Origin: an uncultured Candidatus Saccharibacteria bacterium
Lineage (GTDB): Bacteria; Patescibacteriota; Doudnabacteria; UBA920
DNA length: 64,000 bases
Direction of reading: 5' to 3'
NCBI GenBank assembly: GCA_964532425.1
Contig: CAZHIA010000002.1
Span: forward strand, 13,945 to 77,944
The notes under the pieces are model-generated. The model did not search any database, was not told the DNA's origin, and was given only the letters and a program-made list of their open reading frames with translations. A program made the position numbers and the translations under genes. Positions 15,733 to 61,355 of this stretch are shown here, piece by piece (the first letter of the stretch is position 1; the number at the start of each line of letters is the position of its first letter).

Positions 15733-15759
15733 ACACCATTATAAATAATATATCCTCAT

Positions 15760-23536: not shown

Positions 23537-23593
23537 GACTGGTAGGATGAATGGGTGAGATGAGTCCAATAGGGTAGATAAGAATAATAAGAT

Positions 23594-23670
23594 CTATAGG
23601 ATTGATAATTAATATAGGATGAATAGGAAGTATAGGATGTATAGGTCCTATCAAACCTATTTATCTTATA
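23594..23670. repeat. TAGGAT-word repeat tract (7-8-bp periodic)
   Basis: tataggattgataattaatataggatgaataggaagtataggatgtataggtcctat; 14-mer ATAGGATGAATAGG repeated at 24315-24328. Confidence 0.6.
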
Positions 23671-23676
23671 AAGCCT

Positions 23677-24309
23677 ATGGGTGGTTATAGGGATTTAAAA
23701 TCTTTCCAAGGAACGGAGATTATTTTTGATTTGACTGTGGAATTTTTATCCCGCTATATAAAAAATAACCGCAAGCTTTGGGAACAGATGGAAGGAGCCG
23801 CACGGAGCGGCAAGCAAAATTTAGCTGAAGGTTCAAAATACATGAACACTTCCCGCGCCTCTGAAATCAGGTTGATTGAGGTTAACCGTGGCAGCTTGGA
23901 AGAACTCTTGCTTGACTACGAAGATTGTCTGCGCAAGAATCATTTACCCATTTGGAGCATGCAGGACCACCGCGTGACCAAAATCAGGAAACTAGCTTAT
24001 GCTCCCAATAAGTCCTATAAAACCTATTTATCCTATTTGGAAAATCTAGAAACAGCTGCCAATTGTTTAATTACCATCATCAATCAAACTAACTATCTCT
24101 TAGACCGGCAAATGAGAAGCCTGAAAACCGATGTAATTGAAAAGGGCGACATGAGGGAAAGACTGTCACAAGAACGCAATGCATTTAAGAAAACTCAACT
24201 AGCCAACCCCGGACCATCGCTCGACGAATTTCTAAAAGGGTTCGGAATGAAACGTTTAGAAAACGGCCAAGTGATAAAAATTGAGGAATATGATTCAAAG
24301 AAACAATAA
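23677..24309 (+). CDS. four-helix-bundle protein (23S rRNA intervening-sequence protein family), extended C-terminus
   Basis: YRDLKSFQ...QNLAEGSKY...RLIEVNRGSLEEL pattern; paralog at 39760. Confidence 0.5.
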   Translation: MGGYRDLKSFQGTEIIFDLTVEFLSRYIKNNRKLWEQMEGAARSGKQNLAEGSKYMNTSRASEIRLIEVNRGSLEELLLDYEDCLRKNHLPIWSMQDHRVTKIRKLAYAPNKSYKTYLSYLENLETAANCLITIINQTNYLLDRQMRSLKTDVIEKGDMRERLSQERNAFKKTQLANPGPSLDEFLKGFGMKRLENGQVIKIEEYDSKKQ

Positions 24310-24319
24310 GACAAATAGG

Positions 24320-26452
24320 ATGAATAGGTCAGATATGACCAATAAGACCTATAGGACGTATAAGACCTTTATTGCTGCAATGATTGCGGCTGTTTTTCTG
24401 CTGCCCGGTTTTTCTGCCCAGGCTGCAATGATAAAAAAACAGCCGAATAATTTGGGACTGAAAGCTTATTGGAATTTTGACGAAGGCAAGGGGATAAAGG
24501 CTGGGGATTTTAGCGGGAATGGCAACAAAGGAACCCTATCCAACACCACCTGGACTAATGGCAAGCACGGCAAGGCTTTAAATTTTAACGGCAGCAACAG
24601 CGCCATGTCAGTTGCCAGCTACACTAACATGAGCCCAGGCGCCAACAACTTTTCTATAGCTTTTTGGATCAAAACTTCGGGCTATGGCGATTTAATTATA
24701 GGTGCGGACGGCAATGCGGGCACCACGCTGCAAGGCTACGGCCTGGCTATTCCTTTCGGCTGGGGCTGTGCCACACCCGGCCAGCTGTATTTTAATTTTT
24801 CTAATGGCGCTGCACGCGAAGTAGGTTTTTGTTCCAGCAGTATCATTAACGATGGTGGCTGGCATCATGTTTCTATAACTGTCACCCGCGGCGATAAAGT
24901 AAAATTTTACATAGACGGCAACTTGGACAACTCCTTAAACACTACCTTAAACGGTTCCGTACTCCTCCACCATTTCAGCATAGGACAAATTGCCTGGCAA
25001 GGCTGGCTGAACGGATTAATGGATGATATCCGCCTTTATAACCGCGCGTTGTCCGCAAGCGAGGCACTCACCTTATATCAAAGCGGCCAGGAAACCATAG
25101 GTGGCAACCAGGCTGGCCGCGGGACAGACGGTTTAGTAGGGTATTGGTCATTGAATGCCAGTGATGTTTCAGGATCGTCAGCAACCGATGCCAGCGGCAA
25201 AGGCAGAACCTTAACACTATTTAACGGTCCTGCAGCAGCCACTGGACGGTTTGGGCAGGCTTTGTCTTTTAACGGCAGTACGCAGTACGCCAGCACGAGC
25301 AATGCTTTTTCCGAAATCGGCGTGAGCAACCAGGCTTACACGGTTTCAGCCTGGGTCAAAATAGCGCAGGGCAAAACCCAGGGCGATATAATTCATACTT
25401 CCAGTTTGTCAAACGGTTCAGGCTGGTGTTTGGCGCCGCTTAAAATCAACGGCTCAAAAATTGAAACCACCAGCTGGAGTTCCGGTGATGTTACAATTTC
25501 CGGTAATACCACTTTAAAAGCCGATGCTTGGTATTTTTTGGCCGCCACCTGGTCTGCTTCCGGCGGACTACGCGCCTATGTTAATGGAAATTTAGATGCC
25601 TCGACAACTCAGAACACTTATACCGCCAGCGGAGTATCTAATTATATATTTTTGGGCGGGCACGGCGGAGGCTGCGCTTCTGACCGCGGCTATTTTACCG
25701 GAACTATAGATGAACCGCGGGTTTATAGTCGCGCTTTATCACAAACCGAATTAACCGCGCTTTATAATCTTGGCAAAAAAACCGAGAACACCTCACCAAC
25801 ATCGCGCTTAAATGACGGACTCATTGGCTACTGGAACTTTAACGGCGCGAATATGACGGACACACTTGCTTTAGACTCATCCGGTAACGGTTATACCGCC
25901 ACTCTTGCCGGTAACACCGCCAAAGCCATCGGCAAAATAGGGCAAGGGTTATATTTTGACGGCAGCGGCGATTACGTGGCAGTACCTTATACGGCGGCTT
26001 TGGCGCCTGCAAGCGCCATCAGTTATGGCGCTTGGTTTAAATCCTCCGATGTTTCCGCCAATACGCGCATTATTTCCAAAACCGAATTTGGCGGGTTTAA
26101 CCTAGGGCTCAACGACACGGTTTCCGGCATATCCGCCACCGTCAATACAACAAACGGGGGTTATCATTATGTAAATTACCCATCGCCGCAAAACAATCGC
26201 TGGTACCACGCGTTTGTCACCTATGACGGCAGCAATGTGAGTCTGTATGTGGATGGGCAGCTAGCCAGCAGCACGCCAGCTACCGGATTAGCCAACTTCA
26301 CCCGCACCAACCCTTTATGCATCGGGTCAGAACCCAATTCAACAGCGTGCACGTACGGCAACTATTTGACGGGCTTAATTGATGAAGTGCGCATTTATAA
26401 CCGCGCTCTGGCACCGGCTGAGGTTAAACAATTATACATAATGGGAAAATAG
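24320..26452 (+). CDS. secreted protein with three tandem LamG-like (concanavalin A-like lectin) domains
   Basis: Signal peptide ...AAVFLLPGFSAQA; three repeats each ending D(D/E)(I/V/P)R(L/I/V)YNRAL(S/A)..E(L/V)..LY; start ambiguous (24290/24320/24335). Confidence 0.7.
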   Translation: MNRSDMTNKTYRTYKTFIAAMIAAVFLLPGFSAQAAMIKKQPNNLGLKAYWNFDEGKGIKAGDFSGNGNKGTLSNTTWTNGKHGKALNFNGSNSAMSVASYTNMSPGANNFSIAFWIKTSGYGDLIIGADGNAGTTLQGYGLAIPFGWGCATPGQLYFNFSNGAAREVGFCSSSIINDGGWHHVSITVTRGDKVKFYIDGNLDNSLNTTLNGSVLLHHFSIGQIAWQGWLNGLMDDIRLYNRALSASEALTLYQSGQETIGGNQAGRGTDGLVGYWSLNASDVSGSSATDASGKGRTLTLFNGPAAATGRFGQALSFNGSTQYASTSNAFSEIGVSNQAYTVSAWVKIAQGKTQGDIIHTSSLSNGSGWCLAPLKINGSKIETTSWSSGDVTISGNTTLKADAWYFLAATWSASGGLRAYVNGNLDASTTQNTYTASGVSNYIFLGGHGGGCASDRGYFTGTIDEPRVYSRALSQTELTALYNLGKKTENTSPTSRLNDGLIGYWNFNGANMTDTLALDSSGNGYTATLAGNTAKAIGKIGQGLYFDGSGDYVAVPYTAALAPASAISYGAWFKSSDVSANTRIISKTEFGGFNLGLNDTVSGISATVNTTNGGYHYVNYPSPQNNRWYHAFVTYDGSNVSLYVDGQLASSTPATGLANFTRTNPLCIGSEPNSTACTYGNYLTGLIDEVRIYNRALAPAEVKQLYIMGK

Positions 26453-29191: not shown

Positions 29192-29272
29192 TTAAAAGTT
29201 CAAAGTGAAAAGTTCAAAGTTACTTACAAACCAAGCAATTTTTAATTTTGAATTTTAAATTTTGAATTTACC
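29192..29272. repeat. word-built AT-rich palindromic spacer (TTCAAA words)
   Basis: aagttcaaagtgaaaagttcaaagtt ... aattttgaattttaaattttgaattt. Confidence 0.5.
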
Positions 29273-29482
29273 ATGTCTTGGCTTGAGCGCATTCGGAAAA
29301 AATCACACGATGAAAAAGTTAAACTGATCTGGATCATTTGCGGTTGGACCGCTGCCGTGCTGGTCATTGTCTGGATCGTCTCGGCACATTATGCCAAAAG
29401 ACTCCCGACCGACCCATCCCTGTTTACCACCCTTGGACAAAGTTTCCATGATTTAAAGCAAAACTTTAACAATAACCATTGA
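29273..29482 (+). CDS. small membrane protein
   Basis: 69 aa, one TM helix; flanked by word-palindromes. Confidence 0.35.
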   Translation: MSWLERIRKKSHDEKVKLIWIICGWTAAVLVIVWIVSAHYAKRLPTDPSLFTTLGQSFHDLKQNFNNNH

Positions 29483-29580
29483 CCTTTAACATTTGACATT
29501 TGACAGGGCAGGCCACTGCTTGCTTCGCTGAAGCGAGCCTACACTACGGTCAAAGGTCAAATGTCACATGTTAAATGTAA
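29477..29580. repeat. word-built palindromic spacer (TGACATTT/TTAACA words) upstream of gyrA, contains GGCAGGCCAC motif
   Basis: ccattgacctttaacatttgacatttgaca ... ggtcaaaggtcaaatgtcacatgttaaatgt. Confidence 0.5.
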
Positions 29581-32733: not shown

Positions 32734-32809
32734 GGGCGTATAGCTCAGTTGGTAGAGCGGACGTCTTATACACGTCTGGTCCTAGGTTCGAGTCCTAGTA
32801 CGCCCACCA
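32734..32809 (+). tRNA. tRNA with anticodon TAT (tRNA-Ile UAU, AUA-decoding), CCA encoded
   Basis: GGGCGTATAGCTCAGTTGGTAGAGCGGACGTCTTATACACGTCTGGTCCTAGGTTCGAGTCCTAGTACGCCCACCA; anticodon loop CTTATAC. Confidence 0.8.
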
Positions 32810-38664: not shown

Positions 38665-38943
38665 ATGGACCAAGAAGACATCAAAGACCTGTTTGAAGAG
38701 AAGTACGAAGATCGCATCGGAATGAACTACCAGGAATGGCTGGAACAGGGACCGCAAAATGAAGCCGAAGCCTACGCCCGCCTGCAGGAAATTGACGACG
38801 AGCTGACCAGCACCTATGAAGAATGGTATGAAGCTGTCGGCGAAAAGAAAGACGAGATGGAAGAACACCGGGACCGGTTAAAAGCCGAGTATGATCTAAT
38901 CGAAGAATCGTTCGGACTTGAGGCAGGGGATAAGGGATGGTAA
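38665..38943 (+). CDS. hypothetical acidic protein
   Basis: 92 aa, Glu/Asp-rich, helical-looking. Confidence 0.45.
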   Translation: MDQEDIKDLFEEKYEDRIGMNYQEWLEQGPQNEAEAYARLQEIDDELTSTYEEWYEAVGEKKDEMEEHRDRLKAEYDLIEESFGLEAGDKGW

Positions 38944-38947
38944 GTTA

Positions 38948-39050
38948 AATGACAAAAATTAAAAAAATGACATAATTGACAAAATGTAAACACCCGACTG
39001 CTATCTATTTTTTGTCAATTTTGTTCAATTATGTCATTTATGTCAATTAC
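38948..39050. repeat. TTGACAAAA-family ~100-bp inverted-repeat element, copy A
   Basis: aaatgacaaaaattaaaaaaatgacataattgacaaaatg ... ttttttgtcaattttgttcaattatgtcatttatgtcaatt. Confidence 0.65.
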
Positions 39051-39053: not shown

Positions 39054-39719
39054 ATGCTCTACGTTTTAGCTACTCCAATTGGAAACTTAAAAGATATCAC
39101 CCTTCGCGCAATTGAAACCTTGAAAAGTTGTGATTTTGTGATTGCCGAAAATCCCAGCTATACCAAGCGCTTGCTGGACCACTTTGAGATCGGCCAAAAA
39201 AAGACCATGCAATTCGCCGAGCATAATGAGCAGAAAGTGCTGCCAGGACTTATTGGCTTGCTGGAAAAGCAGAACGGCTGCCTGCTGACTGATGCGGGTA
39301 CGCCGGGAATTTCCGATCCAGGCTTCCGGCTCGTGCGGGAATGCGTGCAGGAAAATATCCAAGTAGTTCCCATCCCCGGGGCTAGCGCAGCCATTACCGC
39401 GCTGTGTGCATCAGGCCTGCCGACCGACAAATTCCTGTTCTTCGGCTTTTTACCCAAAACCGAGATCAAAGTCATGAAAGCCATGGTCGAAGCCAAGACC
39501 ATCGAAGCCACGGCAGTGTTCTACGAATCCCCTGAACGTATTATAAAAACGATTAGTTTTGTAAAAAAAGCCTACCCCGGATGCAATGTCGTCATTGCGC
39601 GAGAGCTGACTAAAATGCATGAAGAGTTTATCCGCGGAACAGCCACAGAAGTCTTGGGAATTCTCCAGAAAAAAGGTAAAGTGAAGGGGGAGATTGTGGT
39701 GCTCGTTTCATTTAAATGA
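39054..39719 (+). CDS. rsmI: 16S rRNA (cytidine1402-2'-O)-methyltransferase
   Basis: LYVLATPIGNLKDITLRAIETLKSCDFVIAEN tetrapyrrole-methylase-family RsmI N-terminus; ORF-track start 38976 lies inside repeat. Confidence 0.8.
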   Translation: MLYVLATPIGNLKDITLRAIETLKSCDFVIAENPSYTKRLLDHFEIGQKKTMQFAEHNEQKVLPGLIGLLEKQNGCLLTDAGTPGISDPGFRLVRECVQENIQVVPIPGASAAITALCASGLPTDKFLFFGFLPKTEIKVMKAMVEAKTIEATAVFYESPERIIKTISFVKKAYPGCNVVIARELTKMHEEFIRGTATEVLGILQKKGKVKGEIVVLVSFK

Positions 39720-40158
39720 TTTAAATGATTGACACGATTTAAATGAATAGCACAAACAAATGGACCACAATGATTTAACGAAACGAACAAAAAATTTCGC
39801 TGTTAAGATCATCGAGCTGGCAAAATATCTAGAAGAGTATTGTGGCAACACTGGGAGAAAAATAGGAGATCAATTACTACGATCAGGTACGAGAGTTTAT
39901 GCCAACTATAGGGCCGCTTGCAGATGCAAGTCGGCAAAAGATTTTATCTCTAAAATAGGAACAGTGGTAGAAGAATCTGATGAATCACTAGGGTGGCTAG
40001 AGTTAATTGACGCAGCTAATTTAATTCCTCATTATATGCTTGAAGAACTGCTAAGAGAAACAAATGAGATCACTGCTATAATGAACGCCTCAAAAACAAC
40101 TGCGATCAGAAATGTAAAGCGTGACAGACCTTAATCATGTCAATCATTTAAATCATTT
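39714..40158. mobile_element. 445-bp cassette with perfect 21-bp terminal inverted repeats carrying a 4HB gene
   Basis: AAATGATTTAAATGATTGACA (39714-39734) and exact reverse complement TGTCAATCATTTAAATCATTT (40138-40158); left TIR overlaps rsmI stop codon. Confidence 0.45.
39760..40134 (+). CDS. four-helix-bundle protein (23S rRNA intervening-sequence protein family)
   Basis: FAVKIIELAKYL...GDQLLRSGTRVYANYRAA...AKDFISKIGTVVEESDESLGWLELI matches family pattern. Confidence 0.7.
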   Translation: MDHNDLTKRTKNFAVKIIELAKYLEEYCGNTGRKIGDQLLRSGTRVYANYRAACRCKSAKDFISKIGTVVEESDESLGWLELIDAANLIPHYMLEELLRETNEITAIMNASKTTAIRNVKRDRP

Positions 40159-40176
40159 AATTCTTGTCAATCTTTT

Positions 40177-40887
40177 ATGTCCGGACATTCCAAATGGGCC
40201 CAAATCAAACGAACAAAAGGCGTACTCGACCAGAAGCGCGGGCTTTTGTTTTCCAAACTTTCGAAAAAGATCAGTATTGCGGTCAAGGAAGGCGGCAGCC
40301 CGGACCCGGGTGTTAATTACAAACTGAAAAGTGCTATTGAATACGCCAAAGGCCAGGGGATGCCGAACGATAATATTGAACGGGCGATCAAGAACACAGC
40401 CAATGCCGGCGAGATCAAAGAAGTGGCCTACGAAGGTTACGGCCCGTACGGTACCGCTTTTTTGGTGGAAGCAGCCACTGACAACCCGAATCGCACCACA
40501 AATAACGTCAAGCATATTTTTTCCAAACATGGAGGTAATATGGGCGCCCAAGGCTCTGTAGCCTGGCAGTTCACCACCAAAGGACAAATTCTTGTTGAAC
40601 GTGACGAAAAGATTTCTGATATCGAAATGGCAGCCATCGACGCCGGAGCTGACGATGTACGCGAATCGGCGGAAGGTCTGGAAGTGTATACTGCACCGAA
40701 CGACCTGATCAAGGTTAAAGAAGCGCTCATTGCAGCCGGGGCTAAAGTAGCCCAGGCCGATATTATCAAAGAATCCAGCCAGGGTACTGACCTCACCGAA
40801 GACCAAAAACCGAAGGTTGACGCTCTGTTTGCCGAGCTCGAGAATGATGAGGATGTGATCGCCGTCCATACGAGCGCTAACCTTTAA
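40177..40887 (+). CDS. yebC: YebC/PmpR-family DNA-binding transcriptional regulator
   Basis: MSGHSKWAQIKRTKG N-terminus and full-length family similarity. Confidence 0.85.
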   Translation: MSGHSKWAQIKRTKGVLDQKRGLLFSKLSKKISIAVKEGGSPDPGVNYKLKSAIEYAKGQGMPNDNIERAIKNTANAGEIKEVAYEGYGPYGTAFLVEAATDNPNRTTNNVKHIFSKHGGNMGAQGSVAWQFTTKGQILVERDEKISDIEMAAIDAGADDVRESAEGLEVYTAPNDLIKVKEALIAAGAKVAQADIIKESSQGTDLTEDQKPKVDALFAELENDEDVIAVHTSANL

Positions 40888-40895: not shown

Positions 40896-40975
40896 TACAT
40901 TTGACCATTAACCATTAACAATTAAACAGGCCATTGCCATCCGGTCAAAAGTCAATGGTTAATTGTTAAATGTTT
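40896..40975. repeat. word-built AT-rich spacer (TTGACC/TTAACA words)
   Basis: catttgaccattaaccattaacaattaaac ... ggtcaaaagtcaatggttaattgttaaatg. Confidence 0.45.
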
Positions 40976-43374: not shown

Positions 43375-46230
43375 ATGAAAATCTACAATTACGAAACTCG
43401 GCCTGCCGTAAAATCACGGGCCAAAAGGCATTTTTTTCACTTTCCAAAATTCCTGCCGAATAATTTTCGAGGGTGGATGACACTCATTGTTCGCATCGCT
43501 GCTGTTGGAATTGTGGTCGCCGCGGCATTATTCCTGTATTACAGCCGAGGATTACCCGATCCAAACAAGCTTCTTGAGCGGAATGTTCCGGAATCTACCA
43601 AAATCCTCGCCCGCGACGGCAGTCTGTTGTATGAGATCCATGGCGAAATTAAACGCACCCAGGTAACACTGGACCAGATCTCTCCGTTCCTGCCCCAAGC
43701 CACCATAGCCATTGAAGACAAGGATTTCTACCGCCACAAGGGTATTTCAGTAACCGGTATAGCCCGCTCTGCCTTGATAGACTTGATCACGCTGCATAAA
43801 TCCCAAGGTGCCAGTACCATTACCCAACAACTGGTCAAGAACGCGATTCTCACCAAAGACAAGTCTTGGGACCGCAAGATCCGCGAAGCCATCCTCGCTG
43901 TTGCACTTGATGCCCGCTACTCGAAAAATGAGATTCTCCAGATGTACCTGAATGAGATTCCCTACGGCCGAAATGCCTATGGAGTGGAGGCCGCCGCGCA
44001 ATCCTATTTCGGCAAGCCGGCCAAGGACCTGGATTTGGCGGAAAGCGCTTACCTAGCTTCCCTCCCGCAAGCGACAACCTACTACAACCCGTACGGATCC
44101 CACCGTGACGCCCTTGATGCGCGCAAGAACACCGTGCTGACCAAAATGCGTGAACAAGGATACATTACCGCGGACCAGGAACAAAAAGCCAAGGCTGAGA
44201 AAGTCGACTTCAAACAGACAACGACCGGCATTATTGCTCCACACTTTGTCATGTACGTCCAGGATTATCTTGCCGAACGTTATGGTGAAAAAACCCTCGA
44301 GGAGGGTGGTTTGAAAGTAACCACCACACTGGATCCCAAATTGCAGCAAATTGCCGAACAGGCGGTAAAAGACAATATGGACAAGGATGCCACCAAGTAT
44401 AACGCGCACAATGCAGCACTGGTAGCGATAGACCCCAAAACCGGGCAAATTTTGGCTATGGTGGGAAGCAAGGACTACTTCGGCGATCCAGAGCCGGCCG
44501 GTTGCACCCCGGGGAAAAATTGCTTATTCGAACCAAACTTTAATGTCGCTGATTCCGAACGCCAACCCGGTTCTAGTTTTAAACCTTATGTCTATGTAAC
44601 TGCCTTCAAAAAAGATTTCAAATATTCCCCCGCATCCCTGCTCATGGATGTCACGACTGACTTTGGTACCTATGGCGGCAAAGATTACACCCCGCACAAC
44701 TATAACGGACAAAGCTACGGGCCGGTATCCATGCGTAAAGCCCTGGCCGGCAGCTTGAACGTTCCGGCTGTCAAAACTTTGGCGTTGGTCGGCGTCGACA
44801 ACGCCACACAAACCGCACACGACCTTGGTATCACCTCGCCGCTACAGGATTGCGGATTATCCCTCGTGCTGGGTGGATGCGAGGTCAAATTAGTTGACCA
44901 TGTCAGCGCTTTTTCTGCCATTGCCAACGAGGGTTTGCGCAACGATAAAACCGCTATTTTAAAAGTGGAGGATCGCAACGGAAAAGCTTTGGAAGAATAC
45001 CAGGACAACCCACACCAAGTACTCGATCCACAGGCGGCATATGAGCTAATCAGCATCATGACCGATAACAATGCTCGCAGTTATATCTTCGGCTCCAATT
45101 CGCCGCTTATTCTGCCTGATCGCGTCGTAGCTGCTAAGACCGGTACTACCCAGAACTGGCACGATGGCTGGACTGTGGGCTTCACCCCGTCTTTAGCTGC
45201 AGGCGTCTGGGCGGGCAACAACGACGGCACCCTGCTCAAAAAGGGAGCGGATGGTGTGTTTGTGGCTGCTCCGATCTGGAATGAATTCATGAAGAATGCC
45301 CTCAAAGGAACCCCAGCCGAAGAATTCAAAGTGCCTGATGGGATCCAAAAAGTCACGGTAGATGAAGTCTCAGGAAAACTGCCTACTCAGTTCACTCCAT
45401 CAACCAAAGTTGAAACATTCGCCAGTTATTCGGTACCGACCGATTACGACCCGGTACACATTACGGTCGCCATGGATTCCCAAACCAACCTGCCGGCTGA
45501 TTCTTCTACGCCGCCGGACCGCATCGTAAACAAAATTTATACGGTCTTCCATAGCGAGCGGCCGAATAGCCCGAATTGGGAAGATCCAGTCGTCGCCTGG
45601 GCCCAGGCTAATGGCTATGAGTATCCCACCGGGACCATCACCGTGCCCCCGCCACAACCGAGCAATGGCGGGGATAGTGGTGTAACAACGGACATTGTTT
45701 CCCCGAACGACGGATCATTCATTTCTGTGTTCCCATTCCAATTGGTTGCAGTTGCTGATTCTCCCAACACCATAGCCCGACTCGATCTGTCCATTGATGG
45801 GCAATTTTACAAGACTGTTACCGGGCAGCCTTACACCTTTACTATTGATAAGCAGTTGCCAGACGGCCCGCACACCCTGGCTATCCGGGCCACGGACAAA
45901 TCCGGCTATACGAACGACACCAGCATTACCATCACGGTCACCACTACCAAACCCGCTTTGAACCTTACCGAGCCATCAGGAACCATTACCGGTTTTCCCA
46001 CTACACTGACCGCAGAGAGCAACAATTTGTATAGCCAGGTTATGTTCTACTACCAGCCGGATAAAGGCCAGCCAAAACTGCTCGGGCAAGCCTCCAATGT
46101 CAGCCACTTCGGCGACACCTATCAATACCAACTGCTTTGGTCCGAACGCCCGGCACCGGGTAACTACCGAGTGTATGCGCAGACTGACCAAGGAGTGACA
46201 TCGTCGAAAGTAAAAGTGACAGTTCCGTAA
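43375..46230 (+). CDS. class A penicillin-binding protein (transglycosylase + transpeptidase) with C-terminal Ig-like domains
   Basis: GT51 motifs (EDKDFYRHKG, QGASTITQQL), transpeptidase SSFKP, KTGTT; N-terminal TM anchor. Confidence 0.9.
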   Translation: MKIYNYETRPAVKSRAKRHFFHFPKFLPNNFRGWMTLIVRIAAVGIVVAAALFLYYSRGLPDPNKLLERNVPESTKILARDGSLLYEIHGEIKRTQVTLDQISPFLPQATIAIEDKDFYRHKGISVTGIARSALIDLITLHKSQGASTITQQLVKNAILTKDKSWDRKIREAILAVALDARYSKNEILQMYLNEIPYGRNAYGVEAAAQSYFGKPAKDLDLAESAYLASLPQATTYYNPYGSHRDALDARKNTVLTKMREQGYITADQEQKAKAEKVDFKQTTTGIIAPHFVMYVQDYLAERYGEKTLEEGGLKVTTTLDPKLQQIAEQAVKDNMDKDATKYNAHNAALVAIDPKTGQILAMVGSKDYFGDPEPAGCTPGKNCLFEPNFNVADSERQPGSSFKPYVYVTAFKKDFKYSPASLLMDVTTDFGTYGGKDYTPHNYNGQSYGPVSMRKALAGSLNVPAVKTLALVGVDNATQTAHDLGITSPLQDCGLSLVLGGCEVKLVDHVSAFSAIANEGLRNDKTAILKVEDRNGKALEEYQDNPHQVLDPQAAYELISIMTDNNARSYIFGSNSPLILPDRVVAAKTGTTQNWHDGWTVGFTPSLAAGVWAGNNDGTLLKKGADGVFVAAPIWNEFMKNALKGTPAEEFKVPDGIQKVTVDEVSGKLPTQFTPSTKVETFASYSVPTDYDPVHITVAMDSQTNLPADSSTPPDRIVNKIYTVFHSERPNSPNWEDPVVAWAQANGYEYPTGTITVPPPQPSNGGDSGVTTDIVSPNDGSFISVFPFQLVAVADSPNTIARLDLSIDGQFYKTVTGQPYTFTIDKQLPDGPHTLAIRATDKSGYTNDTSITITVTTTKPALNLTEPSGTITGFPTTLTAESNNLYSQVMFYYQPDKGQPKLLGQASNVSHFGDTYQYQLLWSERPAPGNYRVYAQTDQGVTSSKVKVTVP

Positions 46231-46335
46231 TTAATTGACAAAAATGACAAAATTGATCAAAATTGACAAAATTATACTGCAATCCTGTTCTCCATTTTTG
46301 TCAATTTTGTCAATTTTTTAAATTTTGTTCAATTC
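46231..46335. repeat. TTGACAAAA-family inverted-repeat element, copy B
   Basis: aattgacaaaaatgacaaaattgatcaaaattgacaaaatt ... atttttgtcaattttgtcaattttttaaattttgttcaatt. Confidence 0.7.
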
Positions 46336-46339: not shown

Positions 46340-47521
46340 ATGCCTTTCCTCCTCATCCTCACTTTCCTCCTTACTCCTGCCTACGCGGCGCGTTTTAGCG
46401 TGTTTGGCTTGCCGACCGATGTGCTCATGGTATGGGTCGGTGTCTTCTGGATCGCGGCCATTGCCTGGTTTACAACCAGAAAATTGTGGGGGGAATTCTT
46501 TGCTTTTCTGAAAACATTCGAACGGCCAATTCTCCTGCCAATCCTGCTATTCTCTCTGGCAGGAGTTTTCGCGCTCGATGTTCACGGGTTTGACCTCAAG
46601 AAGACAGGGCAGTTTTTAGTGCTCTTCTTACAACCAGTTTCTGTCTTTTTTATTTCCTCTTTCATATTTCGAAAGACCCCAAAGGCCAAACATACATTCC
46701 TAACCGCCTGTTCCATACTCCTAGCGGTTATGGGGCTGTTCGCTATCCTGCAATACTTCACCCGTATTGGACTGCCGGCCGCGTATTGGGGTAATAGCAT
46801 AGAACCAAAGCGCGCCTTGGGATTCTTTGGCCACCCGAACTTCTATGCGTTATTCGCAGCGCCGCTATTGGCACTATTGTTACCGGATGTACGATTAAAA
46901 CTACAAGAGGCAAGGAAACACAGCGCTCCGATCATTATGTGGGTTATTGGAGTGGTTGGACTGCTACTGTCCCTATCCCGTGCCGGCTGGCTGGGCTTGG
47001 GAGTAACTGTTCTACTGTATGCGATCATAGCAGGGGACAAGCGGATCCGAAGCGGTCTCGGTATTATCGCGCTAGTCGGAATATTAATCGTTAGCCTCAA
47101 TACCAACCTTCGATGGAGAATCCTTCTACCGCTGCATGGAGAAAAATCAGCCGTCTCGCGCATTTCGTTATGGAATACGGGATGGAAGGGGGTTAAGGAA
47201 GCGCCCATCAGCGGGCTTGGCCTGGCTGGTTTTTCCCGGCAATGGCCTATACTCAACACTGACCCCAACCTCGATACCCATAATTACCCGCACAATATCT
47301 TTCTCGATGTCTGGGTAGAGACCGGGTTGCTAGGGTTGATAAGTTTTATTTGGCTGCTTGGTGTTTTCCTCTGGCGTGGATATTCCAACCGAAACGACCT
47401 ATGGAAATTTTCAGTGGCTTTGTTTTTGACCGCTCTGCTCGTACAAGGACAGGTTGATAATCCATACTTTAAAAATGATTTGGCGATGGTCTTTTGGATG
47501 ATGTTAGCCCTGGCTGTATAA
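46340..47521 (+). CDS. O-antigen ligase/polymerase-family membrane protein
   Basis: Polytopic; SLSRAGWLGLGVTVLLY Wzy_C-like segment; ATG 46340 preferred over TTG 46325 inside repeat. Confidence 0.65.
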   Translation: MPFLLILTFLLTPAYAARFSVFGLPTDVLMVWVGVFWIAAIAWFTTRKLWGEFFAFLKTFERPILLPILLFSLAGVFALDVHGFDLKKTGQFLVLFLQPVSVFFISSFIFRKTPKAKHTFLTACSILLAVMGLFAILQYFTRIGLPAAYWGNSIEPKRALGFFGHPNFYALFAAPLLALLLPDVRLKLQEARKHSAPIIMWVIGVVGLLLSLSRAGWLGLGVTVLLYAIIAGDKRIRSGLGIIALVGILIVSLNTNLRWRILLPLHGEKSAVSRISLWNTGWKGVKEAPISGLGLAGFSRQWPILNTDPNLDTHNYPHNIFLDVWVETGLLGLISFIWLLGVFLWRGYSNRNDLWKFSVALFLTALLVQGQVDNPYFKNDLAMVFWMMLALAV

Positions 47522-47553: not shown

Positions 47554-47577
47554 CCCTCCATGGTCCCCATGGGGGGA
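47554..47577. repeat. degenerate copy (P3) of the P1/P2 palindrome
   Basis: CCCTCCATGGTCCCCATGGGGGGA, shares first 17 nt with P1. Confidence 0.6.
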
Positions 47578-47621: not shown

Positions 47622-48479
47622 ATGAACAAACCACTTTTTTCCAAATTAGCCAAAGTCACGCTTTTGATCGTTTTTTGGGTTGTAGTCGTATTTATCGGCT
47701 GGCAGGCCATGAAAAAACCGGCTTTGACCGGCGACTGGCAGCCCCAATTGGCAGTGCCTTCTACCGCCGAATTTCACGACGACTTGGTGACTATCCACAA
47801 CGTACGCAATTTCCGCTACGGACCGGGAAAAGAATCAGACACTCATCCTGCGTATTATGATAAAACCTATGACCTGCGGAAAATCAAACAGATTTGGTAT
47901 GTGACCGAACCATTTAACGAAAATAAGACGGCCGCTCACACCTTCCTGTCGTTCGAATTTAATAATGGAGATTTTTTAGCGATCACAATTGAAGCCCGCA
48001 AGACCAAAGACCAAACCTATAGTATTTGGAAGGGGATGCTCCACACGTATCCGCTCATGTATATTGCGGCGGACGAGCGTGATGTGGTTCTGGTTCGGGC
48101 CAATTTACGCAAAGACAATGTCTACGCGTACCCAGTCAAACTCAGCAAGCCGGAAAATGCCCGGGTACTACTGGTTGATATGTTGGAGCGCATGAATAAT
48201 CTCTTAGTCCACCCAACCTGGTACAACACCTTCTGGGCCAATTGTACGTCCAGTATTGCTTACCATGTTAACCGCATCACCCCGCACCGTATTTCCATGT
48301 GGTCATGGCAATTGTGGCTGACCGCTTCGGCTGATGAACTGGCTTTAAAACATGGGTTATTGGATACCAACCTTCCTATAGAACAAGCCCGGCAACAATA
48401 CTTTATTACTGAACGCTCGCAAAAAGTCGGGGATGTGGAAGGATATTCGAAGTTGATCAGGGAGTTTGAGAAGAAATAG
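47622..48479 (+). CDS. DUF4105/Lnb-N-terminal-domain-like membrane-anchored protein
   Basis: N-terminal TM; AHTFLSFEF...YSIWKGMLHTYPLMYIAADERD pattern; family assignment from memory. Confidence 0.5.
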   Translation: MNKPLFSKLAKVTLLIVFWVVVVFIGWQAMKKPALTGDWQPQLAVPSTAEFHDDLVTIHNVRNFRYGPGKESDTHPAYYDKTYDLRKIKQIWYVTEPFNENKTAAHTFLSFEFNNGDFLAITIEARKTKDQTYSIWKGMLHTYPLMYIAADERDVVLVRANLRKDNVYAYPVKLSKPENARVLLVDMLERMNNLLVHPTWYNTFWANCTSSIAYHVNRITPHRISMWSWQLWLTASADELALKHGLLDTNLPIEQARQQYFITERSQKVGDVEGYSKLIREFEKK

Positions 48480-48618
48480 AAAAATAAAAAAATAGAAAAT
48501 TCAAAAATTCAGATCTTCGAAGGTGTAGGGGCGGCCAGCGGCCGCCCGATAACCAAAAGCTAGTAGTTTCCCTTACAAAATTTTAAAATCTTTCTATTTT
48601 TTTATCTTTTTATTTATT

Positions 48619-50308: not shown

Positions 50309-50779
50309 CTATTTTCTCAACCGAATCACGATCTTCCGGTGCGGTTCATGGCCAATGCTTTCCGTGTACACTTCCGGGTTATGTTCTTGTAAGTAGGCGT
50401 GTATAAAGCGGCGCTCGTAGTTCGGCATGGATTCTAAACTGACGCTCTTCCCAGTCCGTTTGACCTGCTCAGCTGCCTGTTTGGCGGTCTCCTTCAAATA
50501 CCACTCTCGCTTGCGCTTGTAATCATCCACATCCAGGCTGAAACGGAACTGTTGGTCAGGCGGCAACTGGCGGGCGACAACACCCTGCACCACCACCTGC
50601 AAGGCGTGAAGCGTGGCACCCTGCCTGCCAATAAGCAGGTAGGAATCAGGTGAAGAAATGTTAAAAATCAAACCCTTGGTAATGCTATCTTCGAATTCAA
50701 CTTCGCCCGGAACGCCTATCTTTCCAAGCACGTCAATAATTAAAGCTTTTACTTTATCGATTTTTTCGTAGTCGGTCAT
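50309..50779 (-). CDS. khpB: Jag/KhpB RNA-binding protein (KH + R3H domains)
   Basis: R3H motif ERRFIHAYL; conserved position after yidC. Confidence 0.7.
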   Translation of the reverse strand: MTDYEKIDKVKALIIDVLGKIGVPGEVEFEDSITKGLIFNISSPDSYLLIGRQGATLHALQVVVQGVVARQLPPDQQFRFSLDVDDYKRKREWYLKETAKQAAEQVKRTGKSVSLESMPNYERRFIHAYLQEHNPEVYTESIGHEPHRKIVIRLRK

Positions 50780-50780
50780 G

Positions 50781-50845
50781 ATTGTAACATTTAACAGTTA
50801 ACATTTGATCCGCCGCGGCGGATCAATTGTCAAAGGTCAATTGTT
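50781..50845. repeat. word-built palindromic spacer with 20-bp perfect core TGATCCGCCGCGGCGGATCA
   Basis: taacatttaacagttaacatttgatccgccgcggcggatcaattgtcaaaggtcaattgtt between yidC stop and jag start. Confidence 0.6.
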
Positions 50846-51577
50846 GGTCGATGAGGGTTGCTTTCTCATCATATAGTATTGCTGGGCGACGGCAAAAAGT
50901 GTAGTTACGATCCAGTACAGCGGCAAACCAGCCGGTAATTTCAAAGCCACAAAAACGCTTACCAGCGGCAGGACATAGGTGGTTTGTATGCGCATAGCCG
51001 CAGCGGTCGCATCTTGTCCTGGTTGCGCCGGCATCATCATTTTGGATTGCCAGAACTGTGCAAAGCCGGCTAGGAGGGCAAAAATCAGGCTCGGGATATA
51101 GAATTTACCCCCGGCAAGCAGCGCGGGTTTGGAAAGATCGACGATATGGAGGAAATAAGGACTGATTGATCCAGGGTTGGGTACGAAGGAATATAATCCG
51201 GTAATATCATGGCTGCCAAGGGCCAGCCTGAACACTTGAAAAAGAGCTAGTAGGATAGGAATTTGGATCAAAACCGGCAGACAAGAAGAAAAAGGGTTAA
51301 TCTTATGCTCTTTATAAAGTTCCATCATCGCCCGAGCCTGCCCTTCCTTGTCGTCCTTGTATTTTTCTTTGACAGCATTTAATTTCGGCTGCAAGTCATT
51401 CATAGCCTTTTGGCTTTTGAGTGACTTATGAAAACTAGGAGCTAAAATCAAACGAATAACAATCGTTAGGAGAATAATAACAATTCCAATATCATGCCCG
51501 GGAATAACACGGTAAAATCCGATAAGTAAGTTTAGGAGCGGCCGGTAAATTATCTCGTGATACAAAAATGTGATCAT
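50837..51577 (-). CDS. yidC: membrane protein insertase YidC (short form)
   Basis: 5 TM-type YidC/Oxa1 core; conserved rnpA-yidD-yidC order. Confidence 0.8.
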   Translation of the reverse strand: MITFLYHEIIYRPLLNLLIGFYRVIPGHDIGIVIILLTIVIRLILAPSFHKSLKSQKAMNDLQPKLNAVKEKYKDDKEGQARAMMELYKEHKINPFSSCLPVLIQIPILLALFQVFRLALGSHDITGLYSFVPNPGSISPYFLHIVDLSKPALLAGGKFYIPSLIFALLAGFAQFWQSKMMMPAQPGQDATAAAMRIQTTYVLPLVSVFVALKLPAGLPLYWIVTTLFAVAQQYYMMRKQPSSTNN

Positions 51578-51635
51578 AATAAGTAGTTTTCAATTTTCGT
51601 TGTTTACACCCCCTCATTCCTGTCAGTGACTGGGC

Positions 51636-51893
51636 CTAGGGCACCAAATCAACCGATGGTTGTGCGAAAGGATTACATTTAATAACTCTTTTTAAAGAAA
51701 GTAAAAACCCCTTGCCTAATCCATGCTTTTTCAAAGCTTGTTTGGAATATTCACTGCAGGTGGGGTAATACCGGCAATACCCATGCGGATACCTACCTTT
51801 CAACCAACCATGGTCAGGGGAGAGGGTGTGCTGGTATAGGGTAATCATGCCAACAAATAGCGTGGTTGGCAATCTTTTTAGGATATTCCACAT
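51636..51893 (-). CDS. yidD: membrane protein insertion efficiency factor YidD
   Basis: YQHTLSPD...CRYYPTCSEYSKQAL...CNPF family signature. Confidence 0.8.
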   Translation of the reverse strand: MWNILKRLPTTLFVGMITLYQHTLSPDHGWLKGRYPHGYCRYYPTCSEYSKQALKKHGLGKGFLLSLKRVIKCNPFAQPSVDLVP

Positions 51894-51896
51894 GTG

Positions 51897-52232
51897 TTAA
51901 CGTATTAATTTCGAGTTGTGTATAAGTTGTGTAAAAGCGGATAACAACTCGTTTTTCCCCAATTTTGAAGCATTCGGCTTCACAATAACCGCATAGTCTC
52001 CATGGTTTAAACCGTCAAAGTTGATGCGAATATATTCCCGAAGAGTCCTTTTAAACCAATTTCGCTTTACCGCGCTTTTGGAAACTTTGGTGGAAACTAT
52101 TACCGTAAACCGCTTTATTTCAGGGTTAAACCGATATTTTATTGTTAAATAAGGGTTAAAAAAACCCCGCCCCCTGGCAAACACAGCTTTAATGTCCTTG
52201 CTCTTAGCGAGACGGTGAGTTTTTTTCAACAT
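51897..52232 (-). CDS. rnpA: ribonuclease P protein component
   Basis: 111 aa basic protein with RnpA-like RNR motif region (KRNWFKRTLRE); position after rpmH. Confidence 0.8.
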   Translation of the reverse strand: MLKKTHRLAKSKDIKAVFARGRGFFNPYLTIKYRFNPEIKRFTVIVSTKVSKSAVKRNWFKRTLREYIRINFDGLNHGDYAVIVKPNASKLGKNELLSAFTQLIHNSKLIR

Positions 52233-52238
52233 ATTCGT

Positions 52239-52373
52239 TTAAACAGTGAGTTTTTTTCTGCCTTTAAGACGTCTGTTAGCCAGGACGTTTCTACCGCCTT
52301 TAGTCTGCATGCGTGTGCGAAATCCATGCCTTCTGCTGCGTCTCTGGGCTTTGGGTTGGTAGGTTCTCTTCAT
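52239..52373 (-). CDS. rpmH: 50S ribosomal protein L34
   Basis: Hand translation of minus strand: [44 protein letters not shown]; not in ORF track (<60 aa). Confidence 0.85.
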
Positions 52374-52487
52374 GGTCTTTCCTATATATCAATTTAGTTA
52401 ATATTCTCGGCTAATTATACTAAAAAAAACTACCATAGTCAACTCTTCATAACAATATAAACCAGGTATCCAATCATTAAACACACA

Positions 52488-52601
52488 TTATCCACAACAT
52501 ATAAACAGCTAAGTCAATTATCCTTATATCTATGAGGTTTTTTAGTGCATTTACATGTTGATAACTCCCTGTTAGAATGAGGTATCGATAGGATATCCAC
52601 A
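52488..52601. promoter_or_regulatory. DnaA boxes upstream of dnaA
   Basis: TTATCCACA 52488-52496 (perfect), TTATCCTTA 52518-52526, TTATCAACA (minus) 52556-52564, ATATCCACA 52593-52601. Confidence 0.55.
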
Positions 52602-52655
52602 AGTTATTTCGAATTTTTCAAAGGAAACCCAAATTCAATTGCAAATTTTGCCTGT

Positions 52656-54026
52656 ATGAACAACCAACAACTCTGGCAAGCCATTCTGGGAAGTCTTGAA
52701 GTCTCGTTAAGCAAGGCTAATTTTAACACATGGTTTAAAAATACCAATATTGTTCAACGAGGGGATGATTATATTATTATTGGCGTACCAAGTGCTTTTA
52801 ACCGCGACTGGATTGCCGCCAAATACCACCATGAGATGTTAAAAGCACTAAAAACTATTGCCCCAGAGATAAAGGAAATTAGATACCAATTAGGAAACCA
52901 AACCCCCACCCCTCAAGCACAACCCACCGTTCAGCAAAATCGGCCACCCCAACACCCAGAGCAATCCACTCAACCGTACCGGTCCGGCGAGCAAGCTGTT
53001 ATTCCCACAACCGGTTTAAACCCCAAATATACATTTGAGACCCTTATTATAGGCAAAAACAACGAACTCGCCCACGCCGCATGTGTGGCGGTCGCTAAAA
53101 ACCCTGGGACCCAGTATAACCCTTTATTTATTTATGGTGGGGTGGGATTAGGTAAAACCCACATGATGCAGGCCGTCGGCCATAGACTGCTTCAGACGAG
53201 CAGCCGAACCAGGATCTTGTATGTAACGAGTGAAAAATTCACAAACGACTACATTACCGCGATCAGCCAAAAACGCTTCGAGGAATTCAAGAAAAATTAC
53301 CGCGATGTTGATGCGTTATTAGTTGACGATATTCAATTTTTAGCTGGGAAAGAAGGAATTCAAGAGGAGTTTTTCCACACCTTTAACGAACTTCGGGATA
53401 AAGGTAAGCAAATCATTCTCACTTCAGACCGTCCACCAAAAGAAATCCCTTCTATTGAACAACGGCTTATCTCCCGGTTTGAATGGGGGATGGTAGCTGA
53501 TATTCAAGCCCCTGACTTGGAAACCAGGATGGCGATTTTACGCACCAAAATGGAAAAGCGAGGTGTGGTTATTAGCGAGGATATTCTTTTCTATATAGCG
53601 GAGAATATTCAAAGCAATGTCCGTGAATTGGAAGGTGCATTAAACCGCCTCGCTGTCTACCAGCAAATGGAAAATCGCGGATTAGTTCTTGAACAAGCCA
53701 AAAATATCCTTGCCAGTATTGTTGGCGCAAAGAAAAAAGTTACCTCCATTAAAAAAATAGCTGAATCTGTTGCGGAATTTTACAACATTACCATGGAAGA
53801 TTTGGTTAAACAGTCCAGAAAAAAGGAATTTGTAAAACCAAGGCAGATTGCCATGTATTTGATCAGAAAAGAATTGGATAATTCCTTCCCATCTATTGGA
53901 GACTTCTTTGGTGGCAGGGACCACACTACTGTCATGCATGCAGTGGAAAAAATCGAGTTGATGGTGAATCAGAAGGATTCATTCAAACAAGAAGTGGATT
54001 TAATTCTGGATAAACTGTATACATAG
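52656..54026 (+). CDS. dnaA: chromosomal replication initiator protein DnaA
   Basis: AAA+ Walker A GGVGLGKTHM, sensor motifs, C-terminal DNA-binding domain. Confidence 0.9.
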   Translation: MNNQQLWQAILGSLEVSLSKANFNTWFKNTNIVQRGDDYIIIGVPSAFNRDWIAAKYHHEMLKALKTIAPEIKEIRYQLGNQTPTPQAQPTVQQNRPPQHPEQSTQPYRSGEQAVIPTTGLNPKYTFETLIIGKNNELAHAACVAVAKNPGTQYNPLFIYGGVGLGKTHMMQAVGHRLLQTSSRTRILYVTSEKFTNDYITAISQKRFEEFKKNYRDVDALLVDDIQFLAGKEGIQEEFFHTFNELRDKGKQIILTSDRPPKEIPSIEQRLISRFEWGMVADIQAPDLETRMAILRTKMEKRGVVISEDILFYIAENIQSNVRELEGALNRLAVYQQMENRGLVLEQAKNILASIVGAKKKVTSIKKIAESVAEFYNITMEDLVKQSRKKEFVKPRQIAMYLIRKELDNSFPSIGDFFGGRDHTTVMHAVEKIELMVNQKDSFKQEVDLILDKLYT

Positions 54027-54284
54027 CATGGGAAAAGTGGTTGATAGGCATGGAATAAAAGTTGGATAAGTTGTGTGAAAAACTTCAAACAAACCGCCTC
54101 TAGCAGGATACACACTAAGATACCCACAACCAGTACCAAGTTATCCACGGAAAAACACAGACTTATCTACAGGATTACTTTTAAAATCATGTGATGAATA
54201 CGGATAAAACCAACTATTCCACAAATCAACAAGGCTTATTATCACTATTGTTATGTATTTAAATTATTTATTTATAAATAATAT
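54027..54284. promoter_or_regulatory. candidate oriC: DnaA-box cluster plus AT-rich unwinding element in dnaA-dnaN spacer
   Basis: TTATCCACG 54141-54149, TTATCTACA 54164-54172, TTATCCAAC (minus) 54062-54070, TATTCCACA 54215-54223, aTACCCACA 54120-54128; AT-rich 54241-54284. Confidence 0.55.
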
Positions 54285-55385: not shown

Positions 55386-55486
55386 TCAACATAATTCGAA
55401 TTCCCCGAATGAATACAATCCGAATGATCCAAATATAATCATTTGGGGCATTCGGAAGGAATTCGTAGATTCGGATTATATACCTT
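55386..55486. repeat. word-built palindrome (CGAAT/ATTCG words)
   Basis: aattcgaattccccgaatgaatacaatccgaatgatcc ... ggggcattcggaaggaattcgtagattcggatt. Confidence 0.55.
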
Positions 55487-61285: not shown

Positions 61286-61355
61286 TTACTATATTCCAGT
61301 AATTGACGCGAGGGAAAAACAGCCGTAAGATAAGGTTAAATCAAGTAATTATTTT

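Follow-up and report, generated by a model that had tools for sequence, protein, structure and literature searches.

Three homologous copies of a palindromic repeat of about 100 bp, each built from short tandem words, lie between genes in a 64-kb stretch of DNA from an uncultured Candidatus Saccharibacteria bacterium (contig CAZHIA010000002.1; hereafter the window, meaning the whole 64,000 nucleotides analysed). The presence of the three copies, here termed A, B and C, is confirmed well beyond chance. Our preferred interpretation, to which we would give a probability of about one half, is that they belong to a foldback family resembling MITEs (miniature transposable elements with inverted repeats), whose arms are arrays of putative DNA recognition words and whose members have been copied to new spacers between the stop codon of one gene and the start codon of the next. 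This figure is held down because no transposase, no target duplication and no recent near-identical copies were found. The lineage concerned belongs to the Patescibacteria, or candidate phyla radiation (CPR), whose genomes are tiny and gene-dense and whose promoters, translation signals and mobile DNA are almost unstudied.

Each copy measures 96-104 bp, has a G+C content of 21-23%, contains no open reading frame (ORF) and is intergenic (Table 1). An arm consists of four "TTGACAAAAT"-like words of 9-10 nt that recur with a period of about 9.5 bp and take the form (A/T)TTGA(N)CA(A/T)AAT, or TTGACA(A/T)AAT when simplified; four such words are followed by a centre of 11-23 nt and by four inverted words, and the element is bounded by the termini TAATTGAC...GTCAATTA. 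Nine of the ten exact TTGACAAAA 9-mers of the window fall within A, B and C, and a profile hidden Markov model of the family (nhmmer), run on both strands, matched these three loci only, with E-values of 1e-12 to 1e-18. An initial annotation made from the sequence alone had reported three palindromes of about 100 bp at these loci; their positions are borne out, with refined arm and centre coordinates, as are the GGGCCC in the centre of copy C and the near-identity of the ~42-nt right arms of B and C, which agree in 39 of 42 aligned columns, one 1-nt indel counted in. The right arm of A, once inverted, matches the left arm of B at 38 of 44 positions (93% over 40 nt), and complementarity between the two arms of a single element is lower, from 31/41 to 36/45, or about 76-81%. 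Every copy folds more stably than 200 of 200 dinucleotide-shuffled sequences, with z-scores of -2.9 to -6.8 and energies of -22 to -29 kcal/mol.

The family extends beyond the window. In a pattern scan that covered one genome per species, more than 112 loci were returned; the architecture is shared by about 22 of them, all in metagenome-assembled genomes (MAGs) of Patescibacteria. An alignment of eighteen full copies, drawn from the window and from nine Patescibacteria MAGs, extends from end to end over ~100 nt, with the consensus TAATTGACAAAAATGACAAAATTGACAAAATTGACAAAATT - AGGCTGCAGTCTA - TTTTTGTCAATTTTGTTCAATTATGTCATTTTTGTCAATTA and a near-palindromic CTGCAG centre, and irregular features such as TTTTTTAAATTTTGTTCAATT and ATGTCATTTTTGTCAATTA recur among them. 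Because the alignment holds over the full length, centre included, the element is a discrete unit whose ends are defined. Each arm behaves like an independent copy of a single consensus, and pairing between the arms is not kept: a copy's own arms score 19.6 for pairing against 20.9 across copies, the true partner has a mean rank of 10.8 out of 18, and in the 'type 2' arms TTTAAAAAA words face TGACA words, which creates large internal loops. Overall identity is 62-71% among the window copies and reaches 78-80% to copies in other genomes; as the window copies are thus no closer to each other than to foreign ones, the family is old.

Copies in other genomes occupy comparable positions. In L102 a copy stands on either side of rpsN (S14), at successive junctions, and the second of these junctions is directly upstream of rpsH (S8); a further example has copies on both sides of a pilin gene, and in L013 a copy separates divergent genes. 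Solo arms occur in relatives as well. In some 550 kb of relatives' DNA, the family was found only once, in L153, where the possibility of paralogous flanks was rejected, the upstream gene encoding an unrelated 469-aa protein. We also abandoned a deep conservation across CPR classes, which the labels Saccharibacteria, Doudnabacteria and 'Patescibacteria group' of the MAGs had seemed to indicate. The MAG nzgw384, labelled 'Candidatus Doudnabacteria' and the nearest named relative of the lineage, is syntenic with the window at 72-88% protein identity, and CAZQFQ01, labelled Saccharibacteria, is syntenic with the window and identical to metagenome contig L124 at one junction; because both are close to the window, the labels fail to show a spread across classes, and we treat the family, on this ground, as belonging to one Doudnabacteria-like lineage. 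Two other candidates were discarded: a phage or viral vector, since a 21-mer of the family had no exact match in viral contigs, and a DNA-uptake sequence, since the 9-mer is confined to the elements and is not scattered. Exact-protein look-ups of rsmI and of the Wzy-like gene next to copy B gave no match.

A, B and C all separate same-strand genes with a common layout of stop codon, element, 5 nt following the terminal CAATT, and ATG. The genes on either side are a 92-aa ORF and rsmI for copy A, a class A penicillin-binding protein (PBP) gene, whose TAA is at 46228-46230, and a Wzy_C-type membrane protein gene for copy B, and, on the minus strand, ruvB and a 70-aa membrane ORF for copy C. The initial annotation had placed all three exactly at gene boundaries, and stop-to-start junctions are indeed where they stand; the rsmI start that copy A appeared to overlap in the ORF track (TTG 38976) is a mechanical artefact within the copy, relatives supporting ATG 39054, and copy B begins directly after the PBP stop codon rather than on it. 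Copy C does include the ruvB stop codon, as had been proposed. The ATGs downstream of A, B and C lack a Shine-Dalgarno (SD) sequence, as do 48 of the 60 ATG starts in the window, 28 of these 48 having T at position -1; a gene for ribosomal protein S1 is present in the window. At four genes (6354, 9267, 41979 on the minus strand, and 43375), TATAAT or TATACT is followed by 6 nt and an ATG, a geometry that suggests leaderless mRNAs. An outward leaderless promoter within the elements was considered and rejected: GTCAAT/TTCAAT occupies the TATAAT position but lacks the A at position 2 and a -35 or TG partner.

Evidence for mobility comes from orthologous junctions, whose comparison the initial annotation had put forward as a check. 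A protein-anchored metagenome scan yielded 47 syntenic loci, with 50-83% identity in tyrosyl-tRNA synthetase, and sites filled in the window proved to be empty or occupied by other families. At the PBP-to-Wzy junction, which holds copy B in the window, three relatives have palindromes unrelated to it in sequence: that of L118 is built from CTAATTA words, that of L124 from GGAAATAA words, one of its arms containing (TTATTTCC)x6, and that of L153 has no obvious words; in L156, L122/L158 and L146-148 the junction is empty and consists only of TAA, 4-8 nt and ATG. The filled site of copy B reads CCGTAA, element, CTACTATG, excision would give CCGTAA joined to CTACTATG, and the empty site of L156 is CCTTAACTCCATG (CCTTAA CTCC ATG); because the excised site matches the empty one, the pair indicates that the element inserted cleanly and duplicated no target bases. 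Three further word families are found upstream of rsmI, in L153, L124 and L121. At two adjacent junctions the window has AAAGTTCAAAG and TTTGACA palindromes, whereas the corresponding sites in nzgw384 hold a TTGACAAAA arm on its own and a full TTGACAAAA-family element, and an ATCAGCG family is present in both genomes but upstream of different genes. Independent short-read Logan contigs from the source sample break within the copies, one spanning from inside A to inside B and another ending inside C, as expected of a repeat longer than the assembly k-mer.

The elements share several properties with MITEs as these are defined (PMC10969869), being shorter than 500 bp, non-coding, A+T-rich and intergenic, with terminal inverted repeats in the form of arms of ~40 nt and with dispersed copies whose locations differ between related genomes. 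The flanks show no target-site duplication. Comparison with other classes was less favourable. Against repetitive extragenic palindromes (REPs) and the mosaic elements made of them (BIMEs), which are associated with RAYT transposases, we find a ~100-nt unit of 9-10-nt words, no GTAG head and no Y1_Tnp domain among the scanned window proteins. Against integron attC sites, which are palindromic, have R''/R' cores (RYYYAAC...GTTRRRY), mark the 3' end of mobile gene cassettes and go with an IntI gene, stand the termini themselves, flanking housekeeping genes in conserved synteny (rsmI, PBP, ruvB, S14/S8), and the lack of an integrase among the window proteins scanned. The proposal of a dispersed MITE-like family is thus upheld as regards unrelated junctions in several genomes, orthologous sites that are empty or otherwise filled, and assembly breaks; 'REP-like' in the strict sense has to be given up. 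The elements are MITE-like rather than demonstrated MITEs, because the filled and empty sites reveal no target-site duplication and the ~30 window proteins scanned include no transposase.

Several observations weigh against mobility of this kind. No bases are duplicated between filled and empty sites, though a duplication hidden in the palindromic TTAA/AATT termini would escape notice, and the flanks of the other copies share no common direct repeat. A Pfam scan of ~30 window proteins found no transposase, integrase or Y1/HUH gene, and no arm pair flanks a gene in the loci fetched. A recent burst is not apparent either, since the window copies are no closer to each other than to foreign copies. 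Three MAGs, 56-77% identical in a PBP2-like gene, all have one arm after the stop codon of this gene, which looks like long-term and possibly functional retention rather than selfish turnover; the similarity of this arm is partly imposed by the search pattern. (An RNA gene beside such solo arms, in L006, L074 and L077, was considered and dismissed, the conserved TTCTCCGCCCACCAC being the 3' end of the PBP2-like gene.) Promoter-like motifs show no bias towards the downstream gene in 17 copies (3 against 5 for the extended -10, 7 against 6 for -35/-10 pairs), and the strongest of them, in copy C, faces antisense into ruvB. Finally, local slippage contributes to the wider class of palindromes described below, because perfect tandem units occur among them. 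Taken with the evidence above, a non-autonomous family that is old yet still turning over is the best explanation.

The TTGACAAAA family has company. Further word families laid out in this way number at least eight in the window (Table 1). Applying a strict definition of long A+T-rich palindromes to 400 junctions of the window and its relatives, we counted 19 palindromes, 15 at tandem and four at divergent junctions, and none at the 67 convergent ones, the chance of zero convergent being ~0.03. In relatives, junction palindromes include perfect tandem units, (TTATTTCC)x6 at L124 6990-7065/L007 and (CAATTGA)x3 at L153 4799-4873, signs that slippage has expanded them recently and that length may vary immediately upstream of start codons. 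A gene for a PF05635 '23S rRNA intervening sequence protein' (124 aa, four-helix-bundle, Avd-like; 39760-40134) lies between rsmI and a yebC-like gene, enclosed by inverted arrays of TTAAATGATT words (39712-39746 and 40133-40177). Because just 4 nt separate rsmI from the yebC-like gene in L118, where the PF05635 gene is absent, the gene and its arrays look like an inserted cassette. No further PF05635 cassettes were found by tblastn in the fetched loci. A second PF05635-like ORF of 210 aa (23677-24309), whose 22.6 bits fall short of the Pfam cut-off, has a palindrome of ATAGGATG words ahead of it, and similar words also come after it, within the start of the next ORF (region 23590-24400). The best reading of these data is that the TTGACAAAA family is one of many word-array palindrome families that colonise the stop-to-start spacers of this lineage and that all behave alike.

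Table 1. Coordinates in the window of the three TTGACAAAA-family copies, of adjoining gene starts and stops, and of other palindromes of the same class
Feature	Position	Strand	Remarks
Copy A, left arm	38948-38985		AATGACAAAAATTAAAAAAATGACATAATTGACAAAAT, words forward; nhmmer hit 38944-39050, E 2e-18
Copy A, centre	38986-39008		GTAAACACCCGACTGCTATCTAT; holds ACTGC, remnant of the family's CTGCAG-like centre
Copy A, right arm	39009-39049		Inverted words; 5 nt (from CAATT) to rsmI start codon
Copy B, left arm	46231-46274		Begins right after PBP stop; nhmmer E 1e-16 to 1e-18
Copy B, centre	46275-46294		TACTGCAATCCTGTTCTCCA
Copy B, right arm	46295-46334		'Type 2', has TTTTTTAAA word
Copy C, left arm	60031-60073		Perfect extended -10 TGATATAAT at 60044-60052, + strand, aimed at centre
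Copy C, centre	60074-60084		TGGGCCCATTA, includes GGGCCC
Copy C, right arm	60085-60126		Final three bases, 60124-60126, are the ruvB stop codon, minus strand
TAA stop of upstream 92-aa gene	38941-38943	+	4 nt ahead of copy A
True rsmI ATG	39054-39056	+	MLYVLATPIGN...; no Shine-Dalgarno upstream; relatives' rsmI start at aligned ATG
ATG of Wzy_C/O-antigen-ligase-like gene	46340-46342	+	5 nt past copy B
ATG of 70-aa membrane ORF	60024-60026	-	5 nt from terminal CAATT of copy C
Other palindrome, same class	263-366
Other family, ATAGGATG words	23613-23671		Ends at ATG 23677 of weak PF05635-like ORF
Other family, AAAGTTCAAAG words	29192-29270		Ends at ATG 29273; nzgw384 orthologous junction has solo TTGACAAAA-family arm
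Other family, TTGACC/TTTGACA words, G+C-rich centre	29460-29570		Upstream of gyrA; nzgw384 ortholog has complete TTGACAAAA-family element
Other family, CATTAAC / GTTAAT words	40897-40973		Ends just ahead of ruvC ATG 40978
Other family, ATAGAAAAA words	48471-48618		G+C-rich hairpin in centre
Other family, AACATTT/CAATTGAC words around CCGCCGCGGCGG	50786-50845		L153 ortholog partly alike, (CAATTGA)x3
Other palindrome, same class	55386-55486
Other family, CGAATC/ACGAAT words	56569-56668		Downstream of recF
Other palindrome, same class	about 61180-61300

How such elements might work can be sketched as follows. Read as double-stranded DNA, the arms would offer arrayed binding sites to a protein by which the element is copied or moved, by analogy with the subterminal repeat arrays in the ends of many transposons. 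Insertions would be tolerated only where a gene start follows, perhaps owing to promoter-like words that read through, each word doubling as a potential -35 hexamer (TTGACA) and as a near extended -10 (TGnCAWAAT) aimed at the centre. A transcript started in the stop-proximal arm could cross the element into the downstream gene, the other arm then forming a U-rich, SD-less leader, and transcripts reading through from upstream would hold both arms and fold as a hairpin. Promoter activity could also explain how a 100-bp insertion comes to stand between formerly adjacent, probably coupled genes, even beside ribosomal protein genes.

Promoter potential bears equally on an alternative that dispenses with mobility, in which the element is a cis-regulatory module of the host, a symmetric promoter/insulator cassette kept by selection: transcription of the downstream gene, or of both genes where the junction is divergent, would start from the inward words, while the hairpin or converging polymerases would stop read-through from upstream. 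A consensus scanner finds sigma-70-like sites of 10/12 in A, B and C, because TTGACA sits 17 bp upstream of the CAAAAT two words on, given the 9.5-bp period, and inward -35/-10 matches of 8-11/12 are present in every family copy. The evident promoters of this genome, judging from motif positions, appear to be of the extended -10 type: of the nine perfect TGnTATAAT motifs that the window contains, eight are non-coding and precede genes or a tRNA (tRNA-Gly), one of these eight being in the left arm of copy C, and the family word TGACA(A/T)AAT differs from this motif at one or two positions. Copies always abut a gene start and are never found at convergent junctions, the arm at the PBP2-like gene has been kept in three MAGs, and the copies around rpsN next to rpsH, where a pure terminator would harm, as well as that between divergent genes in L013, also suit a cassette. 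Close relatives nevertheless have orthologous junctions that are empty or hold unrelated words, which is unexpected for a conserved regulatory site; promoter-likeness has no sense bias, a candidate directional selection on promoters being negative across the 17 copies; most other word families of the class lack sigma-70-like hexamers; and no terminator consensus is present in A, B or C. We consider this alternative unlikely.

What remains of the bidirectional promoter activity suggested by the initial annotation is that consensus matches do occur in both arms; all of them point inward, to the element centre, without preference for the downstream gene. The TTGACA hexamer invoked there is present in the words, and its value as a -35 may be lower where clear promoters are of the extended -10 type. 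Promoter activity of the elements is therefore plausible from their motifs, with no sign in the sequence that it would be a selected function. A broader and more speculative reading is a lineage-wide, hitherto undescribed system of Patescibacteria in which interchangeable word-array palindromes replace the intercistronic spacer as modular promoter/insulator units, the TTGACAAAA elements being its most recognisable family, written or moved without target duplication and perhaps linked to PF05635 genes. We think this quite improbable; if true, genes of a compact, largely SD-less genome would be given their own short or unstructured leaders, even beside S14/S8.

A local origin, without copying, is a further alternative: slippage would amplify a word in an A+T-rich spacer, intrastrand template switching would invert the array, and the likeness between loci would result from convergence on promoter-like words. 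In keeping with it, perfect tandem units are seen in (TTATTTCC)x6 of L124/L007, (CAATTGA)x3 of L153 and AGTACTC repeats of L121, the yidC-jag junction elements of the window and L153 have some words in common in different copy numbers, and L153 13671-13741 is a near-perfect palindrome. For the TTGACAAAA family we nevertheless judge it distinctly improbable, as copies at unrelated loci and in different genomes have ~100 nt of ordered, partly irregular sequence in common, centre included, and as a copy's own arms are no more complementary than arms of different copies, the opposite of what template switching predicts.

An RNA-level role, as an intercistronic hairpin serving as terminator, RNase III site or mRNA stabiliser in the manner of Escherichia coli REP or Neisseria NEMIS/Correia hairpins, would fit the position and the significant stability of the hairpins, and some centres, in this family and in others, for example those of L153 20737-20795 and of the window palindromes at 48471-48618 and 50786-50845, do hold a G+C-rich mini-hairpin followed by T's. 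Selection on RNA was looked for through strand asymmetry and arm co-variation, and both were negative: in 8 of 17 copies the sense strand is the more stable one, the difference averaging +0.6 kcal/mol, so both strands fold equally well, the arms do not co-vary, and the 'type 2' words open large internal loops where they oppose TGACA. The terminator activity of the initial annotation failed a consensus scan in all three copies, none of A, B or C having a G+C stem with a T-run, while textbook terminators of this kind are present at convergent junctions of the same window. Rfam gave only sub-threshold, generic hairpin noise for the elements and matched no known RNA family. Because co-variation, strand bias, terminators and an Rfam match are all missing, the conserved object is the word sequence of the arms on DNA and not an RNA structure, and a structured RNA is most improbable. 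Operator arrays for one transcription factor can be set aside as scarcely credible: OmpR/PhoB-type response regulators do recognise TGTCA/TTNACA-like hexamers repeated directly every 10-11 bp (pho boxes), and the elements do have direct repeats of TTGACA/TGTCAA hexamers with a 9-11-bp period in which sequence rather than pairing is kept, but the uniformity of a 100-bp unit whose ends are defined and whose centre is conserved, unrelated flanking genes (rsmI, Wzy-like, ruvB, S14/S8, pilin, PBP2-like upstream of an apparent folD) and placement that differs between close relatives speak against such a regulon.

The window has other features of interest. A probable replication origin region extends over 50309-56569, with a minimum of cumulative GC skew at ~52-54 kb; on its minus strand are jag-like, yidC-like, yidD-like and rnpA genes, on its plus strand dnaA (52656-54026), dnaN (54285-55385) and recF (55487-56569), with DnaA-box-like TTATCCAC sequences within 54027-54284. 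Copies A, B and C are all at most 14 kb from this probable origin and skew minimum. A G+C-rich, near-perfect palindrome of 39 nt, CCCTCCATGGTCCCCATCGGGATGGGGACCATGGAGGG, is found at 14679-14717 and 15694-15733, on both sides of a Pfam-less ORF (14906-15685), with a half copy at 47554-47574. The gyrA-like gene of nzgw384 (L109) has an insertion of ~1.6 kb (reverse complement, 5106-6682) that is absent from the window at 29940/29941, perhaps an intein, an intron or a mobile insertion of another kind. Among tRNA genes, a tRNA-Ile with anticodon TAT (UAU), uncommon in bacteria, is located at 32734-32809. An exact 38-nt duplication links 11787-11824, inside a minus-strand tRNA-Val (11764-11840), with 11897-11934, 110 nt off, the second copy of which looks like a partial tRNA pseudo-copy within a tRNA cluster. 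Lastly, an ORF of 2138 aa (17120-23536) contains at least nine copies of a 10-residue-type repeat and the DNA repeat families D1-D5.

More than the single family, it is the multi-family phenomenon with its fast turnover that merits attention. Many stop-to-start spacers of this lineage hold word palindromes of ~60-150 bp, in families that are gained, lost and swapped between close relatives and that extend to junctions beside the genes for ribosomal proteins S14 and S8. Gene-expression signals in this lineage have in them an unexpected source of rapid change. Contigs that break exactly at the repeats make them a practical cause of fragmented CPR assemblies. Should the elements prove to carry promoters, the genetics now emerging for Patescibacteria would gain useful parts from them; should they be moved by a new mechanism, they would be of interest to the field of mobile DNA.

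In the literature searched, we found no description of small repeats of this kind in Patescibacteria, which is no proof of novelty, and several known systems offer partial parallels. The short tandemly repeated repetitive (STRR) sequences of heterocystous cyanobacteria are intergenic tandem arrays of heptamers, with several families per genome; they resemble the present elements in their arrays of 7-nt-class words and differ in being plain direct arrays, without inverted pairs in stop-to-start spacers, and in belonging to a different lineage. REP/BIME sequences and enterobacterial repetitive intergenic consensus (ERIC) sequences, also called intergenic repeat units (IRU), are extragenic or intercistronic palindromes at the gene boundaries of operons, inserted without target duplication, and in this placement and mode of insertion they are like the elements described here. 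A REP is, by contrast, a palindrome of 20-40 nt with a GTAG head and usually a RAYT gene, neither of which was seen here, and ERIC is a single conserved family of 127 bp without word arrays. Intervening sequences (IVS) of 23S rRNA may contain PF05635 ORFs enclosed by a stem, which recalls the PF05635 gene of the window enclosed by inverted word arrays and makes a link between hairpin insertions and this protein family possible by analogy; the three TTGACAAAA copies, unlike these, carry no ORF and are not in rRNA, and the PF05635 link was not recovered at other loci. The ends of eukaryotic Foldback (FB-type), CACTA, hAT and Mutator elements contain sub-repeats that serve as multiple transposase-binding sites. 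Long inverted arms of short tandem sub-repeats around a small or absent centre are common to Foldback elements and to ours, whereas Foldback elements are eukaryotic, of kilobase scale and tied to known transposases; no bacterial counterpart of this anatomy was found in the literature searched.

Prokaryotic MITEs are shorter than 500 bp, A+T-rich and intergenic, with inverted ends, stably folding transcripts and often sigma-70-like promoters (PMC10969869). The present elements fit this description in size, A+T content, intergenic site, inverted ends, stable folding and sigma-70-like motifs, and depart from it in lacking a direct-repeat target duplication and a parent insertion sequence or transposase that could be found, and in having arms of ~40 nt made of sub-repeats instead of the usual terminal inverted repeats of 4-30 bp. 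Correia repeat enclosed elements (CREE, or NEMIS) of Neisseria are A+T-rich intergenic elements of ~100-150 bp with inverted ends, mostly immediately upstream of genes, much as ours are; promoters can be created at either or both of their ends, their hairpins are bound or cut by RNase III, and their locations vary between related genomes (PMC2649163; PMC10969869). Correia elements differ in their simple terminal inverted repeats of ~26 bp, TA target duplication and site for integration host factor (IHF) in a conserved core (see also PMC10969869). In the elements of the window and its relatives the arms are tandem arrays of 9-10-bp words around a centre of 11-23 nt, no target duplication is seen, promoter-like motifs are directed inward and not outward, and there is no sequence similarity to Correia elements. 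In behaviour, then, the family is closest to Correia/NEMIS elements and prokaryotic MITEs, while its anatomy resembles that of eukaryotic Foldback-type ends.

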